Under the pieces are notes generated by a model. That model had not been told where the DNA came from and did no database searches. It saw only the letters and a list, made by a program, of their open reading frames with translations. Position numbers and translations under genes: made by a program. Below, piece by piece: positions 1-7,776 of a stretch of DNA of 7,776 nt. Origin of the DNA: a virus (taxonomy: Duplodnaviria; Heunggongvirae; Uroviricota; Caudoviricetes); the IMG/VR virus record IMGVR_UViG_2939152649_000004, positions 1-7,776 of that record; one strand, 5' to 3'. Position 1 is the stretch's first letter; every line of letters starts with the position of its first letter.

Positions 1-276
1 TTACCGACTGCGGCCTGAGTTTTTTAAGTGACGTAAAATCGTGTTGAGGCCAACGCCCATAATGCGGGCTGTTGCCCGGCATCCAACGCCATTCATGGCC
101 ATATCAATGATTTTCTGGTGCGTACCGGGTTGAGAAGCGGTGTAAGTGAACTGCAGTTGCCATGTTTTACGGCAGTGAGAGCAGAGATAGCGCTGATGTC
201 CGGCGGTGCTTTTGCCGTTACGCACCACCCCGTCAGTAGCTGAACAGGAGGGACAGCTGATAGAAACAGAAGCCAC
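1..276 (-). CDS. insA: IS1 InsA (transposition regulator, zinc-finger/HTH protein)
   Basis: 91-aa [46 protein letters not shown]...LKNSGRSR, recognised as canonical IS1 InsA. CxxC...CxxC zinc-finger motif is present. Confidence 0.93.
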
Positions 277-308
277 TGGAGCACCTCAAAAACACCATCA
301 TACACTAA

Positions 309-331
309 ATCAGTAAGTTGGCAGCATCACC
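309..331. repeat. IS1 terminal inverted repeat (left end); IS1/flank junction at 331|332
   Basis: Sequence atcagtaagttggcagcatcacc is the reverse complement of the IS1 end GGTGATGCTGCCAACTTACTGAT. Only one IS end is in the window, so no target-site duplication can be assessed. Confidence 0.8.
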
Positions 332-335
332 AGCA

Positions 336-366
336 GTGACAATATAAAATATAGTCTTAATATTAT
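336..366 (+). promoter_or_regulatory. Candidate sigma70-like promoter upstream of the GGDEF ORF, immediately next to the IS1 end
   Basis: gtgaca at 336..341 (5/6 match to TTGACA) followed 17-19 bp later by overlapping AT-rich hexamers aatatt/tattat at 359..366. By-eye call only. Confidence 0.2.
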
Positions 367-388
367 ACAATACTCGCTGAATCGTCAT

Positions 389-1156
389 TTGTCGACGTGG
401 AATATCGTGTACACCAAAATAATATCAGTATTTTGGCTTGTATTACTTATCAGCTCATGCATCAGCATACGTAATTACTCAAAAATATGGTTGTGTATAA
501 TACTTATTTGTATAGTGTCAGTATGCAATAATCTAATTTTATTGTATTTTATTGATAAATCCCATCCTGCATGGTACATGACAAAATTTCTTGAATTGAT
601 ATCAATGATTTATATCATTTCAACACTCATGTATTATGTTTTCAGGAAATTAAATCATGCTAATCATATGGCAATTCATGATCCACTAACGAATACATAC
701 AATAGAAGATACTTTATTGACTCATTGAAGAATATATCAAAACACCATGATTTCTCAGTAATAATGTTAGATATTGACAATTTCAAAAGCATCAATGACA
801 AATGGGGGCATCATATGGGTGATCAAGTCATAGTAATGGTTACCAGAATAATAAAAAAATCCATCAGGAAAGAGGATATATTAGGGCGCTTAGGCGGTGA
901 GGAGTTCGGTATTATCATTAAAGGTAATACTCAAAAGCTCTTGCTATCAATTGCAGAGCGAATCAGAAAAAACATTGAGGAGCAATGCTCGAAAAAATTA
1001 TTATCGCATGGACCTGAGAAAATAACCGTCAGTATTGGTTGTTTTACTTCAAAAGAGAATAATCTCAGTCCATCTGAAATGTTAGTCAATGCCGATAAAG
1101 CGTTATATCAAGCCAAAAGAACCGGAAAGAACAAGGTGATAACTCACTCAAAATAA
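389..1156 (+). CDS. Membrane-anchored GGDEF-domain diguanylate cyclase (predicted active; I-site present); start codon uncertain
   Basis: 255-aa ORF. Three hydrophobic segments in the N-terminal ~85 aa are followed by a GGDEF domain: HDPLTNTYNRRYF, DIDNFKSINDKWGHHMGD, and RKEDILGRLGGEEFGIII, which carries the GGEEF active-site motif with an RxxD motif five residues upstream. The region is visibly AT-rich. The ORF as listed starts at TTG 389; there is no in-frame ATG before codon 63. Confidence 0.85.
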   Translation: MSTWNIVYTKIISVFWLVLLISSCISIRNYSKIWLCIILICIVSVCNNLILLYFIDKSHPAWYMTKFLELISMIYIISTLMYYVFRKLNHANHMAIHDPLTNTYNRRYFIDSLKNISKHHDFSVIMLDIDNFKSINDKWGHHMGDQVIVMVTRIIKKSIRKEDILGRLGGEEFGIIIKGNTQKLLLSIAERIRKNIEEQCSKKLLSHGPEKITVSIGCFTSKENNLSPSEMLVNADKALYQAKRTGKNKVITHSK

Positions 1157-1185
1157 ACACCTTTTTAAAATACAGCCCCAATAAA

Positions 1186-1218
1186 CTGCAGAATATTATC
1201 CCATATAATATCCTGCAG
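1186..1218 (-). terminator. Imperfect inverted repeat/hairpin between the convergent GGDEF and tfa genes; possible terminator for stf-tfa
   Basis: Arms ctgcagaatattat (1186..1199) and ataatatcctgcag (1205..1218) pair at 13 of 14 positions with a 5-nt loop. On the minus strand the hairpin is followed by TTTATTGGGG. It lies 12 nt past the tfa stop. Confidence 0.35.
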
Positions 1219-1229
1219 TTCGTAATGCA

Positions 1230-1814
1230 CTATTCGATAATGGGTCCTGTTGGCCATTCAATATCCGGTGCAGTTGATGTATCAACACGGTTCAGCAATA
1301 CCCGATACTTTTTCCATGCTTCCAGCAACGAGATTTCTTCCTCCGTTGCAATTTCCAGATCTGCAGCATCCTGAAGCGGCGCAATATGCTCACTGGCTAC
1401 CTGCATCAGGCTGTTTTTTGTTTCTTCCGCCTCCCGGATCCGGAACAGTTTTTCTGCTTCCGTATCCTTCACCCAGGCTGTGCCGTTCCACTTCTGATAT
1501 TCCCCTCCCGGCGATAACCAGGTAACATTTTCCGGTAACGGACCGAGTTCAGAAATAAATAACGCGTCGCCGGAAGCCACGTCATAAACCGTTTTACCCC
1601 GATGATTTTCAACGAGATGCCACGATGCCTCATCACTGTTGAAAACAGCCACGAAGCCTGCCGGAATATCTGGCGGTGCAATATCGATACTGTTTGCTGG
1701 CAGACCTGTATGAGGCGGAATATATGCGTCACCTTCACCAATAAATTCATTAGTTCCGGCCAGCAGATTATAAATTTTTATGGTCCGTGGTTGTTCACTC
1801 ATTCTGAATGCCAT
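1230..1814 (-). CDS. tfa: Tail fibre assembly protein Tfa (lambda-like)
   Basis: 194-aa [34 protein letters not shown]..., recognised as lambda Tfa with matching length. Its ATG overlaps the stf stop as TAATG, the arrangement expected for lambda stf-tfa. Confidence 0.93.
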
Positions 1815-3031
1815 TATGCAAGCCTCACAATATAGTTAAATGCGATGTTTTTGACGGTGTTTTCCGCGTTACCAGCAGCGTTAACGGTGATGGTGTGTCC
1901 ATGTGAGCCAATCGCAACCGAGTGCGTATGAGCACCAATACCCACAGTATGTGCGTGTGCACCTGCGCTTGCAGCAGTACCCGATACAGAGTGCGTATGA
2001 GCGCCTGCAGAAGAAGTGTTAACACTGTATTTAGAATAATCAGATGCTCCACTTCCCGGAGCACCACTGGAACCACCTGAAACAAATGTCATCGAATGGG
2101 TATGTGCACCGGCTGAAGCAGCCGTACCGCTAACACTATGGGTATGCGCACCAGTGTTATTCGTGGATTTAGTGCCGTAATCAAACGACGATGTGGTTTT
2201 CGTCCCCAAATCCGTACTGGATGCGCTGGCGCTGTGGGTGTGCGATTTAATGCCGTCCTGTTCCTGAGACAATACGGCCCGACCACTGGCGGGCTTGCCC
2301 TTAATCATCCAGCCACGCATATCAGGGATCACGCCTGACGGATAAGCCGCTGCAAGTTTCGGGTAAGCAGATTTGTCAAAAGTCTGCCCCTGCATCAGGG
2401 CATAACCAGACGGAACGGTATCCGATGGCCACGGGATTGGTGCGCCAGGCGGATAAAACTGCTCTGATGGCGTATAGAGTGAATAAACTGTACCGTCCGT
2501 TAACCCTTCCGGCTTATTAGCAGAATATGCTGGTGACGTATGAATCGTTACGCTGGCATTACTGGTATAATCCCATTGAATATTTACACCAGTCGCATAA
2601 TTTCCGATTGCAACGTAAATATCGTAAGTATCACCAGATGTATTGACCCAGGCAAAATTTGTAAACCCTGCCGATGTGCGCTGCCATAAAGCACCAGTAA
2701 TCCCCTTCGGATTACCATTACCTGCACGCAAAACAAGTTCAGATATACCTGCCTGTTGAGGTGAACCGACGTTATATCCAGCCCCACCAATCAACGTAAT
2801 TGAAACAACAGAACTCGCCTGCGGCATGGTTACCGTTGCTAATTTGAACCAACCAGCACCACCGCTGAATGACATAGTTGTTGAGTTAAGCGTACCAATA
2901 TCTTTCGGTGTCAGTGTTATATCCGCTGAAAGCGCCTTACCATTCACCTTACGGGCAGAAGGTACCCGAAATCCCCTGAAAGCACAGCGGCTGGCTGAGG
3001 AGATAAATAATAAACGGGGAGCTGTATGCAC
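1814..3031 (-). CDS. stf: Side tail fibre protein Stf, C-terminal portion; probably a 5'-truncated remnant
   Basis: C-terminus ...[31 protein letters not shown] is recognised as lambda-type Stf. It contains the tail-fibre motif [17 protein letters not shown] and repeated GAHTHS His motifs. The ORF opens with a GTG and a basic, non-fibre-like ~30-aa leader, the frame closes at 3050..3052, and no tail genes lie upstream. Confidence 0.8.
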
Positions 3032-3217
3032 AAAGCATCTCCTGTTGAGTTAAGAACGAGCATTGAGATGGCACATAGCCTCGCTCAAATTGGAGTCAGG
3101 TTTGTGCCAATACCAGTAGAAACAGACGAAGAATTTCATACGTTAGCCGCATCCCTTTCACAAAAGCTGGAAATGATGGTGGCGAAAGCAGAAGCAGATG
3201 AGAGAGACCAGGTATGA
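3026..3217 (+). CDS. Small exo-xis-region protein, lambda Orf63-like (63 aa)
   Basis: 63-aa [70 protein letters not shown] lies 4 nt upstream of the ATG. Length and position relative to the TraR-like ORF and xis/int match lambda orf63; identity is by recollection, not alignment. Confidence 0.65.
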
Positions 3218-3293
3218 CAACCACTGAATGCATTTTTCTGGCAGCGGGCTTCATATTCTGTGTGCTTATGCTTGCCGACATGGGACTTGTTCA

Positions 3294-3509
3294 ATGACAC
3301 ATCAGCAGGAAAACGCCCTTCGCAGTATTGCCCGTCAGGCTAATTCTGAAATCAAAAAAGCCAGACAGCAGTTTCCGGATAAAAACGTCGATGACATTTG
3401 CCGTAGCGTACTTAAGAAGCACCGCGAAACGGTAACGCTGATGGGATTCACACCGACTCATTTAAGCCTGGCGATCGGCATGTTAAACGGCGTCTTTAAG
3501 GAACGGTGA
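3294..3509 (+). CDS. Small exo-xis-region protein in the position of lambda orf61 (71 aa from ATG 3294)
   Basis: The ORF track gives 3228..3509, but the internal ATG at 3294 overlaps the stop of an upstream micro-ORF (ATGA-type coupling) and yields MTHQQENALRSIARQANSEIKKARQQFPDKNVDD... Same strand and operon as the orf63-like and TraR-like ORFs. Confidence 0.55.
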   Translation: MTHQQENALRSIARQANSEIKKARQQFPDKNVDDICRSVLKKHRETVTLMGFTPTHLSLAIGMLNGVFKER

Positions 3510-3607
3510 ACATGAAAAGCAAAATCATCAGGGAGCTACAGGTTCCTTTTTTATTGTTCGCATTCATCCTCAAGCGTATTAACCAACAATTCAGGGATTA
3601 ATGGAAG

Positions 3608-3829
3608 ATGGCAGACATCATTGATTCAGCATCAGAAATCGAAGAATTACAGCGCAACACAGCAATAAAAATGCGCCGCCTGAACCACCAGGCTATATCT
3701 GCCACTCATTGTTGTGAGTGTGGCGATCCGATAGATGAACGAAGACGCCTGGTCGTTCAGGGTTGTCGGACTTGTGCAAGTTGCCAGGAGGATCTGGAGC
3801 TTATCAGTAAACAGAGAGGTTCGAAGTGA
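3608..3829 (+). CDS. TraR/DksA-family C4 zinc-finger protein (lambda Orf73-like)
   Basis: 73-aa ORF with CCECG...(17 aa)...CRTCASC, i.e. a CxxC-N17-CxxC zinc ribbon at the C-terminus typical of TraR-like proteins. Length matches lambda orf73 and it sits upstream of xis/int on the same strand. Confidence 0.8.
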   Translation: MADIIDSASEIEELQRNTAIKMRRLNHQAISATHCCECGDPIDERRRLVVQGCRTCASCQEDLELISKQRGSK

Positions 3830-3980
3830 GCGAAATTAACTAGAAGCCAAAGATAAAATCATCGCTGAGCAGGAGAAAATCGCTAACGGAGAAAAGACAG
3901 TAAGTCAGTATATGAAAACCGCATGATATCATCAGATAAAAATCGGTCGTAAAGCGAAATATTAATACCAGAACAAACGA

Positions 3981-4006
3981 GTCGAGGTAAATTATATTAC
4001 CTCGAT
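3981..4006 (-). terminator. Hairpin between the convergent TraR-like gene and the membrane-protein gene; candidate terminator
   Basis: Perfect 8-bp stem cgaggtaa/ttacctcg (3983..3990 with 3997..4004) around loop attata, extendable by a t-a pair and a g.t wobble. The minus-strand side downstream is moderately U-rich. It lies about 35 nt past the stop of the 4040..4642 ORF. Confidence 0.35.
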
Positions 4007-4039
4007 AAATTAACTAAAACTTGCCCGCTATATACTATA

Positions 4040-4642
4040 TCATTCAGTATCATCACGCGCGGTCTGTGCATATGTCACTACCGCACCTAATATATTAATT
4101 TTCTTTTCAACATAGATAATATTATCGTACTCATAATTGCCATACGGATAGCAAATGCGAATATTCTCATGTAGATCGGGGTCATCCACCTCAGCTCCAG
4201 AACAACTTTTTGAACTACCGGAAGTATACCGATACGGTGCAACATAAGACGATGTCTCTCCAGGCAAAAAATAAGTTAGTGTCGTAAGGGGTATAATCAG
4301 AAAAAATCCTGCAAATATGCACATCCCTGCATAAACCTTAAGGTATGCTGACAGACTCTTCCAGCCTCTTTGTTTTACTATCCCCTTCTTAACCCAAAAC
4401 AGAGATAATAGAAAAGCTATTCCCATGCTAAACAGAATGTAATAGTGGGATATACTCTGATTAAGAAACGTGACCCTGTAGATATCTGCCCGCCACCAGA
4501 AGAAAAGGAAAATAAAGATCAGCCCTGAAACTGTCATGCAAATCAAATAAGGATACGAATCTTTTTTCATGTTTAGCGCCCATAAAATTTTTCCTGACCC
4601 GGACAAATTTACCATCCATTTTTTGCGCAGAAAATAGCTCAT
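4040..4642 (-). CDS. Hypothetical integral membrane protein (prophage cargo gene; about 3 TM helices plus a ~70-aa C-terminal domain); start uncertain
   Basis: 200-aa ORF with hydrophobic segments LICMTVSGLIFIFLFFWW, YYILFSMGIAFLLSLFWV and MCIFAGFFLIIPLTTLTYFL, then a hydrophilic Cys/Tyr-containing tail (...CSGAEVDDPDLHENIRICYPYGNYEYDNIIYVEKK...). AT-rich and opposite in orientation to the surrounding operon. Alternative starts at codon 10 or codon 25 (MKKDSYPYL, ATG at 4568..4570). Confidence 0.65.
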   Translation of the reverse strand: MSYFLRKKWMVNLSGSGKILWALNMKKDSYPYLICMTVSGLIFIFLFFWWRADIYRVTFLNQSISHYYILFSMGIAFLLSLFWVKKGIVKQRGWKSLSAYLKVYAGMCIFAGFFLIIPLTTLTYFLPGETSSYVAPYRYTSGSSKSCSGAEVDDPDLHENIRICYPYGNYEYDNIIYVEKKINILGAVVTYAQTARDDTE

Positions 4643-4884
4643 TACTTACTGCACAATAATACACAAAATTGCGTAAATTTTTTGCATGGATTTTAGCTCT
4701 TTCAGCCGACATTTAAGGGGTAAATAGCATTTCCTAAAAGCAACTGCACCAACCCAACAGAATGGGCTACCGCTTACGTTGAGAGCAAAAAAGTGTATAG
4801 CAGCAATGAACAGCATCCTCGCACTGACGAGGATTTCTTTTATCTGAACTCGCTACGGCGGGTTTTGTTTTATGGAGATGATAA

Positions 4885-5052
4885 ATGCACTTCCGAGTCA
4901 CAGGTGAATGGAATGGAGAACCATTCAACAGAGTTATCGAAGCCGAGAACATCAGCGACTGCTATGACCACTGGATGCTGTGGGCGCAGATAGCACATGC
5001 AGACGTAACCAATATTCGAATTGAAGAACTGAAAGAACACCAAGCCGCCTGA
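4885..5052 (+). CDS. Small protein upstream of xis (lambda orf55-like, 55 aa)
   Basis: ATG at 4885 preceded by GGAG at 4874..4877; translation MHFRVTGEWNGEPFNRVIEAENISDCYDHWMLWAQIAHADVTNIRIEELKEHQAA. Not in the ORF track because it is under 60 aa. Position and length match the 55-codon ORF next to xis in lambda. Confidence 0.6.
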   Translation: MHFRVTGEWNGEPFNRVIEAENISDCYDHWMLWAQIAHADVTNIRIEELKEHQAA

Positions 5053-5064
5053 TGGCGGTTTTTT
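5044..5064 (+). terminator. GC-rich hairpin plus T6 run overlapping the orf55 stop; intrinsic-terminator-like
   Basis: gccgcc (5044..5049), loop tgat, ggcggt (5054..5059) gives a 6-bp stem including one G.U pair, followed by tttttt. Function not established. Confidence 0.45.
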
Positions 5065-5065
5065 C

Positions 5066-5105
5066 TTGCGTGTAATTGCGGAGACTTTGCGATGTACTTG
5101 ACACT
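5066..5105 (+). promoter_or_regulatory. pI-type int promoter region with cII-binding box TTGC-N6-TTGC
   Basis: TTGC at 5066..5069 and 5076..5079 separated by 6 bp, immediately upstream of the xis ATG at 5092. In lambda the cII-activated pI promoter sits at the xis start with its transcript beginning inside xis. Confidence 0.55.
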
Positions 5106-5310
5106 TCAGGAGTGGAACGCACGCCAGCGACGCCCAAGAAGCCTTGAAACAGTTCGTCGATGGGTACGCGAGTGCAGGATATTCCCTCCTCCGGTAAAGG
5201 ATGGAAGAGAGTATCTGTTCCACGAATCAGCGGTAAAGGTTGACTTAAATCGACCAGTAACAGGTAGCCTTTTGAAGAGGATCAGAAATGGGAAGAAGGC
5301 GAAGTCATGA
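5092..5310 (+). CDS. xis: Excisionase Xis (lambda)
   Basis: 72-aa ORF MYLTLQEWNARQRRPRSLETVRRWVRECRIFPPPVKDGREYLFHESAVKVDLNRP..., recognised as near-identical to lambda Xis. It overlaps the int start as in lambda. Confidence 0.96.
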   Translation: MYLTLQEWNARQRRPRSLETVRRWVRECRIFPPPVKDGREYLFHESAVKVDLNRPVTGSLLKRIRNGKKAKS

Positions 5311-6358
5311 GCGCCGGGATTTACCCCCTAACCTTTATATAAGAAACAATGGATATTACTGCTACAGGGACCCAAGGACGGGTAAAGAGTTTGGATTAGG
5401 CAGAGACAGGCGAATCGCAATCACTGAAGCCATACAGGCCAACATTGAGTTATTTTCAGGACACAAACACAAGCCTCTGACAGCGAGAATCAACAGTGAT
5501 AATTCCGTTACGTTACATTCATGGCTTGATCGCTACGAAAAAATCCTGGCCAGCAGAGAAATCAAGCAGAAGACACTCATAAATTACATGAGCAAAATTA
5601 AAGCAATAAGGAGGGGTCTGCCTGATGCTCCACTTGAAGACATCACCACAAAAGAAATTGCGGCAATGCTCAATGGATACATAGACGAGGGCAAGGCGGC
5701 GTCAGCCAAGTTAATCAGATCAACACTGAGCGATGCATTCCGAGAGGCAATAGCTGAAGGCCATATAACAACAAACCCTGTCGCTGCCACTCGCGCAGCA
5801 AAATCAGAGGTAAGGAGATCAAGACTTACGGCTGACGAATACCTGAAAATTTATCAAGCAGCAGAATCATCACCATGTTGGCTCAGACTTGCAATGGAAC
5901 TGGCTGTTGTTACCGGGCAACGAGTTGGTGATTTATGCGAAATGAAGTGGTCTGATATCGTAGATGGATATCTTTATGTCGAGCAAAGCAAAACAGGCGT
6001 AAAAATTGCCATCCCAACAACATTGCATGTTGATGCTCTCGGGATATCAATGAAGGAAACACTTGATAAATGCAAAGAGATTCTTGGCGGAGAAACCATA
6101 ATTGCATCTACTCGTCGTGAACCGCTTTCATCCGGCACAGTATCAAGGTATTTTATGCGCGCACGAAAAGCATCAGGTCTTTCCTTCGAAGGGGATCCGC
6201 CTACCTTTCACGAGTTGCGCAGTTTGTCTGCAAGACTCTATGAGAAGCAGATAAGCGATAAGTTTGCTCAACATCTTCTCGGGCATAAGTCGGACACCAT
6301 GGCATCACAGTATCGTGATGACAGAGGCAGGGAGTGGGACAAAATTGAAATCAAATAA
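5288..6358 (+). CDS. int: Tyrosine integrase Int (lambda)
   Basis: 356-aa ORF MGRRRSHERRDLPPNLYIRNNGYYCYRDPRTGKEFGLGRDRR...DKIEIK, recognised as near-identical to lambda Int. The catalytic region includes HELRSLSARLY and the tyrosine in ...MASQYRDDRG. Confidence 0.97.
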   Translation: MGRRRSHERRDLPPNLYIRNNGYYCYRDPRTGKEFGLGRDRRIAITEAIQANIELFSGHKHKPLTARINSDNSVTLHSWLDRYEKILASREIKQKTLINYMSKIKAIRRGLPDAPLEDITTKEIAAMLNGYIDEGKAASAKLIRSTLSDAFREAIAEGHITTNPVAATRAAKSEVRRSRLTADEYLKIYQAAESSPCWLRLAMELAVVTGQRVGDLCEMKWSDIVDGYLYVEQSKTGVKIAIPTTLHVDALGISMKETLDKCKEILGGETIIASTRREPLSSGTVSRYFMRARKASGLSFEGDPPTFHELRSLSARLYEKQISDKFAQHLLGHKSDTMASQYRDDRGREWDKIEIK

Positions 6359-6448
6359 TGATTTTATTTTGACTGATAGTGACCTGTTCGTTGCAACAAA
6401 TTGATAAGCAATGCTTTTTTATAATGCCAACTTAGTATAAAAAAGCAG
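6355..6448 (-). other. attL prophage-host junction: lambda P' arm (Int arm-type sites P'1-P'3, IHF H' site) plus the 15-bp att core
   Basis: Reverse complement reads GCCTGCTTTTTTATACTAAGTTGGCATTATAAAAAAGCATTGCTTATCAATTTGTTGCAACGAACAGGTCACTATCAGTCAAAATAAAATCATTA. Core GCTTTTTTATACTAA is at 6432..6446; arm-type sites are at 6355..6385; IHF-like TATCAATTTGTTG is near 6393..6407. Bacterial B-arm sequence follows the core. Confidence 0.88.
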
Positions 6449-6492
6449 GCTTCAACGGATTCATTTTTCTATTTCATAGCCCGGAGCAACCT

Positions 6493-7776
6493 GTGAACAC
6501 ATTTTCAGTTTCCCGTCTGGCGCTGGCATTGGCTTTTGGCGTGACGCTGACCGCCTGTAGCTCAACCCCGCCCGATCAACGTCCTTCTGATCAAACCGCG
6601 CCTGGTACCTCTTCTCGCCCGATTCTGTCGGCAAAAGAAGCGCAGAATTTCGATGCTCAACACTATTTTGCATCCCTGACACCAGGTGCTGCAGCGTGGA
6701 ATCCTTCCCCGATTACCCTGCCTGCGCAACCTGACTTTGTTGTCGGCCCGGCGGGCACTCAAGGTGTAACGCATACCACGATTCAGGCGGCGGTAGATGC
6801 GGCAATTATCAAGCGTACCAACAAGCGCCAGTATATTGCCGTGATGCCTGGTGAGTATCAGGGAACGGTATATGTCCCTGCCGCTCCGGGTGGAATTACT
6901 CTGTACGGTACAGGTGAAAAACCGATTGATGTGAAGATTGGGCTTTCCCTTGATGGTGGCATGAGCCCTGCCGACTGGCGTCACGACGTCAACCCGCGCG
7001 GCAAATATATGCCAGGTAAACCAGCGTGGTATATGTACGATAGCTGCCAGAGCAAACGCAGCGACAGTATCGGTGTTCTCTGCTCTGCGGTCTTCTGGTC
7101 ACAAAACAATGGCCTGCAACTGCAAAATCTGACCATCGAAAACACGCTGGGCGATAGCGTAGATGCAGGTAACCATCCGGCGGTGGCACTGCGTACTGAT
7201 GGTGACCAGGTACAGATTAACAACGTTAACATTCTCGGTCGTCAGAACACCTTCTTTGTCACCAACAGCGGTGTGCAGAACCGTCTGGAAACGAATCGTC
7301 AGCCGCGTACGCTGGTGACCAACAGCTACATTGAAGGGGATGTGGATATCGTTTCTGGTCGCGGCGCAGTGGTGTTCGATAACACCGAATTCCGCGTGGT
7401 GAACTCACGTACTCAGCAAGAAGCGTATGTGTTTGCACCGGCTACGCTGTCCAACATTTACTACGGTTTCCTCGCCGTAAACAGCCGTTTCAATGCTTTC
7501 GGTGATGGTGTGGCGCAACTGGGCCGCTCGCTGGATGTTGATGCCAATACCAACGGTCAGGTGGTGATCCGTGATAGCGCCATCAACGAAGGTTTTAACA
7601 CGGCTAAACCGTGGGCCGATGCGGTGATCTCTAATCGTCCGTTTGCGGGTAATACCGGCAGCGTAGATGATAACGACGAAATACAGCGCAATCTGAATGA
7701 CACTAACTACAACCGCATGTGGGAATACAATAACCGCGGCGTGGGTAGTAAAGTGGTTGCAGAGGCGAAGAAGTAA
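6493..7776 (+). CDS. ybhC: Host outer-membrane lipoprotein YbhC (pectinesterase-like family, putative acyl-CoA thioesterase)
   Basis: 427-aa ORF from a GTG start with GGAG 6 nt upstream. N-terminus MNTFSVSRLALALAFGVTLTAC carries a lipobox (LTAC). ybhC is the gene flanking att-lambda in E. coli; the complete ORF ends with TAA at 7774..7776. Confidence 0.9.
   Translation: MNTFSVSRLALALAFGVTLTACSSTPPDQRPSDQTAPGTSSRPILSAKEAQNFDAQHYFASLTPGAAAWNPSPITLPAQPDFVVGPAGTQGVTHTTIQAAVDAAIIKRTNKRQYIAVMPGEYQGTVYVPAAPGGITLYGTGEKPIDVKIGLSLDGGMSPADWRHDVNPRGKYMPGKPAWYMYDSCQSKRSDSIGVLCSAVFWSQNNGLQLQNLTIENTLGDSVDAGNHPAVALRTDGDQVQINNVNILGRQNTFFVTNSGVQNRLETNRQPRTLVTNSYIEGDVDIVSGRGAVVFDNTEFRVVNSRTQQEAYVFAPATLSNIYYGFLAVNSRFNAFGDGVAQLGRSLDVDANTNGQVVIRDSAINEGFNTAKPWADAVISNRPFAGNTGSVDDNDEIQRNLNDTNYNRMWEYNNRGVGSKVVAEAKK

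Follow-up and report, generated by a model that had tools for sequence, protein, structure and literature searches.

Beside the end of an IS1 element, at the left of a virus-derived stretch of DNA, lies a reading frame for a GGDEF cyclase that lacks an ATG start codon. The stretch is 7,776 nucleotides long (Caudoviricetes; IMG/VR record IMGVR_UViG_2939152649_000004, positions 1 to 7,776) and is referred to here as the window. The question is whether this gene naturally begins at a TTG or GTG codon, or whether IS1 has inserted into its 5' end and removed part of an N-terminal membrane or sensor module. A first-pass annotation of the window had raised both readings. We conclude, with little doubt, that the ORF at 389–1156 is part of the 3' 825 nt (codons 170–443) of dgcX, and that it is an IS1-truncated pseudogene of a known gene, with likely loss of function, and not a gene with an unusual start.

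The IS1 end

The left edge of the window carries the following features.

1–331, minus strand: left part of IS1 (IRL end and insA), outer end at base 331, cut by the window start
309–331, minus strand: IS1 IRL, the 23-bp terminal inverted repeat GGTGATGCTGCCAACTTACTGAT on the minus strand, located by pattern match
1–276, minus strand: insA, an intact ORF of 91 aa from the ORF list, transcribed away from the cyclase remnant

Window bases 1–3 are the insA stop codon (TTA on the plus strand), and the remainder of IS1, with insB' and IRR, lies outside the window.

The reference for matching window positions 256–331 was a 76-nt sequence that we take to be the canonical IS1 left end, and the window is its exact reverse complement there. 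The 91-aa translation is that of IS1 InsA, and IS1 family transposase is the RefSeq annotation at loci matching the window insA. The window therefore contains both a 23-bp terminal inverted repeat and, following it, a 91-aa insA. Compared with the complete IS1 (768 bp) of E. coli YD786 and PRO_A-2567, the fragment in the window differs at 4 of 331 nt. The full-length IS1 copies in the dgcX regions L016 and L018 carry this IRL sequence as well. IS1 copies that match at 99% or above number in the thousands in E. coli, so the match is not due to chance. The terminus that had been placed at base 331 is confirmed by the exact match over 256–331 and by the inverted repeat at 309–331.

The cyclase frame is the 3' part of dgcX

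A megablast search of window positions 1–1400 was run against 5426 complete E. coli genomes. Many chromosomes match from exactly base 332, and the gene annotated there is a 1332-nt "sensor domain-containing diguanylate cyclase". In IS1-free alleles the native dgcX is a 1332-nt gene for 443 aa with an ATG start. The dgcX coding sequence of E. coli S43 (locus L001) lies at 5494–6825, and the match to window base 332 starts at 6001; there are no mismatches in the 1069 nt shared by window 332–1400 and S43 6001–7069. On the 5' side of the junction the window carries the end of IS1, and the S43 sequence there is ...GCAAAAAATCTA. Counted from the native ATG, the junction comes after 507 nt and falls exactly between codons 169 and 170.

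332–1156, plus strand: dgcX remnant, codons 170–443 and stop codon of the 443-aa MASE4-GGDEF protein DgcX, from identity to S43 and Pfam

The retained share is the last 62% of dgcX. The gene is a horizontal acquisition that lambdoid prophages carry at their tail-fibre end. The remnant is identical to dgcX of O104:H4 at 816 of 825 nt (98.9%) and 270 of 274 aa (98.5%). A C-to-T change at the position equivalent to window base 334, found in regions L006 and L009, is synonymous (AGC to AGT).

The original description of DgcX is from E. coli O104:H4, and Richter et al. 2014 (PMC4287979) reported it from that strain type and from EAEC relatives. It is an extra diguanylate cyclase with intact A-site and I-site, and its N-terminal hydrophobic domain of about 270 aa has eight predicted transmembrane helices (PMC4287979). 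Expression of a dgcX::lacZ fusion was very high (Richter et al., PMC4287979). Cimdins-Ahne et al. 2023 (PMC10459773) describe DgcX as a MASE4-GGDEF protein inserted between ybhC and ybhB, and use E359A and E360A as its catalytic mutants. The numbering of these two residues fits the GGEEF motif at 357–361 of the 443-aa protein, which supports the identification as dgcX.

The native protein matches the Pfam families MASE4 at residues 40–274 and GGDEF at 283–437. The remnant contains a complete GGDEF domain and matches only positions 154–237 of the 239-position MASE4 profile, so the full architecture of MASE4 plus GGDEF behind an ATG start (443 aa) is not present in it. It has the GGEEF A-site (native residues 357–361) with the RxxD I-site five residues ahead: RKEDILGRLGGEEF. 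A hydropathy scan places the cut just past a hydrophobic segment at native residues 148–166, and three hydrophobic segments are kept before the GGDEF domain (197–215, 221–239 and 255–273). Absent from the window are codons 1–169, the ATG, the ribosome-binding site and the promoter region; the window lacks about five of the approximately eight transmembrane helices and approximately 60% of the MASE4 sensor domain. IS1 has indeed removed part of an N-terminal membrane or sensor module, as had been suggested, and the loss is larger than that suggestion implied, 169 codons, the start codon and the promoter region being missing from the window. The truncated copy is an ordinary broken gene and known biology.

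The two parts of the gene are found together. Among the 5426 complete genomes of E. coli, 768 contain the lost 5' 507 nt and 769 contain the retained 3' 825 nt, and nearly all of these genomes cover the query fully. Carriers of dgcX make up about 14% of complete E. coli genomes, essentially all of them with both halves. Full length is therefore the normal state of dgcX.

Prophage surroundings

In published strains dgcX is located at lambda attB, always directly adjoining lambdoid prophage DNA (PMC4287979). The surroundings of the remnant in the window are of the same kind.

1230–1814, minus strand: tfa, tail fibre assembly gene (Pfam Caudo_TAP, E = 3.8e-43), convergent with the dgcX remnant
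5288–6358, plus strand: lambda-type integrase gene (Pfam Arm-DNA-bind_1 and Phage_integrase)
6432–6446, minus strand: lambda att core GCTTTTTTATACTAA, from a core motif search
6493–7776: ybhC, annotation taken from strain MB06022

The remaining genes of the window are a truncated tail-fibre gene, early-region genes and xis. The tfa neighbour is also found in S43, J6, O104:H4 and metagenome contigs, and is conserved beside dgcX in lambdoid prophages; on the O104:H4 chromosome the gene order is ybhB-dgcX-tfa. The integrase gene and att core beside ybhC identify a remnant prophage at the lambda attB locus. Convergent tfa, int, xis, the att core and ybhC together place the remnant where dgcX is expected, beside lambdoid tail-fibre genes at lambda attB; the ybhB side of the locus would lie past IS1, outside the window.

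Several other features of this prophage were observed. A second breakpoint lies at 2968/2969 (window 2960–2975): positions 332–2969 are collinear with S43 (dgcX-tfa-stf') and are followed by the prophage early region. The breakpoint skips approximately 3 kb in S43 and approximately 8 kb in MB06022 (iss, rzpD, rrrD and IS/intron debris). In MB06022-type sequence both sides share a 7-bp microhomology, TACCCGA, which suggests a deletion by illegitimate recombination. Neither the complete E. coli genomes nor the other genome and metagenome collections that were scanned contain this junction. The tail-fibre ORF at 1814–3031 (minus strand) is a C-terminal remnant only, with a Collar domain and His-rich GAHTHS-type fibre repeats. 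The GTG at 3031 that looks like the start of this ORF is past the deletion junction, so the first 20 or so codons derive from the fusion and are not native. Exact-product look-up found no record of the chimeric 405-aa product.

A 200-aa predicted membrane protein is encoded in the early region at 4040–4642 (minus strand), between a TraR/DksA-type zinc-finger gene (3608–3829) and xis. Pfam gave no match for this protein, which MB06022 lists simply as hypothetical (WP_001348592.1); its gene may be an accessory (moron) gene of the prophage. An inverted repeat, ACTGCAG...CTGCAGT, lies at 1170–1215, within the 73 bp that separate the convergent stop codons of dgcX and tfa. This may be a bidirectional terminator, and a simple terminator scan made no call at it.

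Candidate start codons

The GGDEF frame has an in-frame upstream stop codon, TAA at 314–316, and is open across the junction to its stop at 1154–1156. The reading-frame check thus agrees with the first-pass annotation that the frame is open from inside IS1; this opening back into IS1 is a product of chance only. The first ATG, GTG or TTG codons of the frame are TTG389, GTG407 and ATG578. TTG389 sits 57 nt past base 331, and both the two possible starts named earlier and their distance from the IS1 end are correct. The first in-frame ATG had been given as codon 63, after two hydrophobic segments. The segments do precede it (native residues 197–215 and 221–239 in the hydropathy scan), and the codon number needs correction, ATG578 being the 64th codon counted from TTG389.

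389–409, plus strand: candidate restart codons TTG389 (native Leu189) and GTG407 (native Val195)

Alignment to the IS1-free S43 allele shows that ATG578 is native Met252. A weak Shine-Dalgarno-like GGA is found 8 nt 5' of GTG407, and no Shine-Dalgarno motif was found before TTG389. The equivalent of GTG407, giving a 249-aa product, is the start chosen by gene callers on contigs where dgcX is split by a frameshift. In exact-product look-ups the 255-aa product from TTG389 was absent from the records. The 249-aa product from GTG407 and the 192-aa product from ATG578 were found only on contigs with an otherwise broken dgcX or at contig ends.

It is so improbable as to be negligible that TTG389 or GTG407 is the natural start of the cyclase gene and that IS1 landed upstream of it without touching the coding sequence. 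The sole point in favour is that TTG and GTG codons occur soon past the junction. Against it, IS1-free alleles, whether examined here or annotated in RefSeq, continue in frame for 507 nt upstream of the junction to an ATG and encode the 443-aa MASE4-GGDEF protein, so that TTG389 and GTG407 are internal leucine and valine codons. The near-equal occurrence of the 5' part (768 genomes) and the 3' part (769 genomes) and the match of the remnant to the MASE4 Pfam model only from position 154 on also speak against it. The proposal of a natural non-ATG start, made from the window alone, is therefore refuted. In annotation, the 255- or 249-aa "GGDEF protein" should be recorded as a 5'-truncated dgcX pseudogene and not as a cyclase with a non-ATG start.

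Origin and effect of the truncation

IS1 abuts dgcX exactly between codons 169 and 170, with its IRL end facing the remnant and insA pointing away. This could have arisen by simple insertion of IS1, in which case the 5' 507 nt would lie on the far side of the element, with a 9-bp duplication of AGCAGTGAC. Such an insertion would leave dgcX nt 1–516 beyond IS1, ending in ...GCAAAAAATCTAAGCAGTGAC with the second AGCAGTGAC copy. The 5' part of dgcX could also have been removed by an IS1-mediated adjacent deletion or by recombination between two IS1 copies. The far side of IS1 is outside the window, so the window itself does not distinguish insertion from deletion. The exact IS1–dgcX junction is absent, as one contiguous piece, from the 5426 complete E. 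coli genomes, and is also absent from GTDB species representatives, JGI metagenome contigs and IMG/VR. Such a unique junction, together with the dense IS1 background, hints at a lineage beyond the complete RefSeq genomes of E. coli, perhaps Shigella.

In the window the remnant is cut off from its ATG, ribosome-binding site and strong native promoter, probably leading to loss of function, and its expression would be low or absent. Classical work on the gal and lac systems established that inserted IS1 elements exert polar effects whichever way they point. The window lacks the promoter, the ribosome-binding site, the start codon and the greater part of the sensor, and from this and from IS1 polarity we infer loss of function; judged from the sequence, the remnant is most likely a recent IS1-generated pseudogene. 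It shows no secondary decay, being 100% identical to an intact allele with a complete GGDEF domain. This counts against reading it as a dead gene; perfect identity to intact alleles implies that the event was recent and nothing more. Some residual activity of a product with three transmembrane segments and a GGDEF domain would be conceivable.

Promoter-like sequences at the junction

The first-pass annotation had noted a -35-like hexamer, GTGACA, immediately at the IS1 junction and had proposed that expression could come from an IS-adjacent or hybrid promoter. The hexamer is present at 336–341. With TAATAT at 358–363 and a 16-bp spacer it forms a 9/12 promoter-like match on the plus strand. 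Both hexamers are native dgcX coding sequence, and the same site is found in the IS1-free S43 allele (L001 6005–6032). The region contains 9 promoter-like matches, compared with 5.9 +/- 2.4 in shuffled sequences, and so is not enriched. Given its native coding origin and this shuffle-level count, the GTGACA site is neither created by the junction nor unusual. The hexamer itself stands, and the promoter proposed from it is not supported: all IS1-free alleles that were examined have the hexamer as part of their native coding sequence, and such matches occur at chance level. GTGACA at 336–341 was ruled out as a junction-created -35 on the ground that it is native coding sequence.

A different hexamer belongs to IS1 itself.

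318–323, plus strand: outward -35-like hexamer TTGGCA, part of the IS1 inverted repeat and separated by 8 bp from the end of the element

The last 23 bp of IS1 contain no outward -35-like hexamer other than TTGGCA. The -10 candidates at spacings of 16, 17 and 18 bp match TATAAT at 3/6, 3/6 and 1/6 positions, and TATAAA (5/6) is found at 19 bp. The outward -35 thus has no good -10 at a spacing of 16–18 bp, and a consensus promoter scan of the junction region found no promoter that uses the IS1 end. The AT-rich junction DNA offers several weak promoter-like hexamers. The best sigma-70-like site 5' of native dgcX, TTGACA-17-TAGTAT (10/12), lies 73–101 nt before the ATG, and the window lacks it. 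S43 and O104:H4 agree throughout this site and differ at one base just ahead of the TTGACA.

InsA binds the inverted repeats of IS1. The IS1 inverted repeat has an outward -35 box (PMC8764528). According to PMC8764528 and PMC9330008, the latter citing Prentki et al. 1986, a hybrid promoter forms only when this box has the right distance to a -10. The genes osmB and ugd are not activated by IS1 copies upstream of them, the spacing being wrong (PMC8764528).

The truncated dgcX might still be expressed, either from a hybrid promoter combining TTGGCA (318–323) with a -10 of the AT-rich target DNA or from a promoter inside the gene (336–363) that has become unmasked, with restart at GTG407. The 249-aa product would have three transmembrane segments ahead of an intact GGDEF domain and would act as a cyclase that lacks its sensor and may be deregulated. 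The GGDEF domain, GGEEF A-site and RxxD I-site are intact, the three hydrophobic segments that are kept make an N-out/C-in topology feasible, a weak GGA precedes GTG407 by 8 nt, and the 336–363 site matches at 9 of 12 positions. The outward -35 of IS1 has also been documented to form hybrid promoters where spacing permits (PMC8764528; PMC9330008, citing Prentki 1986). Even so, this outcome appears improbable. The partners of TTGGCA at 16–18 bp reach only 3/6, 3/6 and 1/6, and the 5/6 TATAAA needs a 19-bp spacer. The site at 336–363 is ordinary coding sequence of all intact alleles and occurs at chance density. InsA on the inverted repeats would, by established knowledge, occlude the IS1 -35. 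The elements upstream of osmB and ugd are inactive by wrong spacing (PMC8764528). The 100% identity to intact alleles marks a recent event, so the intactness of the remnant is no evidence of selection, and dgcX is commonly lost through many kinds of lesion. A shade less probable again is that a weak hybrid or unmasked intragenic promoter and restart at GTG407 yield a sensor-less three-segment GGDEF form of DgcX whose activity is uncoupled from MASE4 input. If this were true, IS1 would have generated a neo-allele of a c-di-GMP enzyme linked to virulence, and the locus would not be a dead gene.

Other lesions at the dgcX locus

We regard the window as carrying a pseudogene, and other copies of dgcX are also disrupted. 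Further IS1 elements are found in or near the gene; positions with a sign are relative to the native ATG.

+884: 768-bp IS1 within dgcX of E. coli PRO_A-2567-6M-A_ESBL (NZ_CM136147.1), with 9-bp duplication CAATAGAAG
About -160: IS1 upstream of dgcX in YD786, with 9-bp duplication AGCCTTGCC
-50: IS1 upstream of dgcX in TUM2820, without duplication, abutting the terminase gene
+447: IS1 IRL end in metagenome contig L005 (ENA ERZ27281939), 1–139, 60 bp from the site in the window
L016 3378–4145, L017 2333–3100 and L018 2564–3331: coordinates of the copies at +884, -50 and about -160, which with that in L005 make four independent positions

The two dgcX halves of PRO_A-2567 are annotated in RefSeq as partial "MASE4 domain-containing" and "GGDEF domain-containing" pseudogenes. 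The TUM2820 case, with no duplication and IS1 abutting the terminase gene, indicates a rearrangement. Insertion and rearrangement events are thus both seen at the dgcX locus elsewhere. The GC content of dgcX is 29%, compared with 52% for the neighbouring ybhB. This fits the preference of IS1 for AT-rich targets (Zerbib et al. 1985, as cited in PMC9330008). The gene and its upstream region look like a local hotspot for IS1. The shared orientation of IS1 at all five sites in the dgcX area was considered and rejected as meaningful, the three E. coli cases being a biased sample from a search that joined same-strand pieces only.

At least eight independent types of small frameshift or nonsense lesion split dgcX in other contigs and genomes (regions L003, L004, L006, L007, L008, L011, L012, L013 and L019). 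They include the following.

Near nt 497: +1 in an A-tract
Near nt 430–440: deletions of 8 bp and 10 bp
Codon 121: stop codon
nt 657 and nt 720: 5-bp insertions
nt 592: 1-bp deletion
nt 1028: +1 in strain MB06022, annotated as frameshifted

These contigs were found through their truncated products and are a biased sample, which speaks to repeated independent loss only and not to lesion frequency. The repeated loss of dgcX in different lineages fits a highly expressed gene that is costly or dispensable outside particular pathotypes. The window adds one further loss of this highly expressed, prophage-borne c-di-GMP synthase.

Comparison with known systems

The closest known system is DgcX of E. 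coli O104:H4 and of other EAEC and ETEC strains. The window contains the same gene, with the same convergent tfa neighbour, at the same lambda attB locus, and the remnant has the same GGEEF A-site and RxxD I-site. It differs from intact DgcX in that the MASE4 sensor is cut to its last third and that codons 1–169, the ATG, the ribosome-binding site and the promoter region are missing from the window. E. coli K-12 has two chromosomal MASE4-GGDEF paralogues, DgcT (YcdT) and CdgI (YeaI) (PMC4287979, PMC10459773). According to these papers they have the domain architecture of full-length DgcX, a likeness that we draw from their description only; they are different genes at loci different from that of dgcX.

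The other IS1 events at the dgcX locus resemble that in the window in placing IS1 in or near the AT-rich dgcX, at +884, about -160 and -50 compared with +507 here. In two of these cases IS1 is flanked by the 9-bp target duplication expected when the element simply inserts. Like the IS1 hybrid promoters known from Prentki et al. 1986, as cited in PMC9330008, and from afaA in ST131 (PMC8764528), the junction has an IS1 end with an outward -35-like hexamer beside AT-rich DNA containing -10-like hexamers. Unlike those promoters, it has no -10 with at least 4/6 matches at 16–18 bp, and the ORF downstream has no proper start codon or ribosome-binding site.
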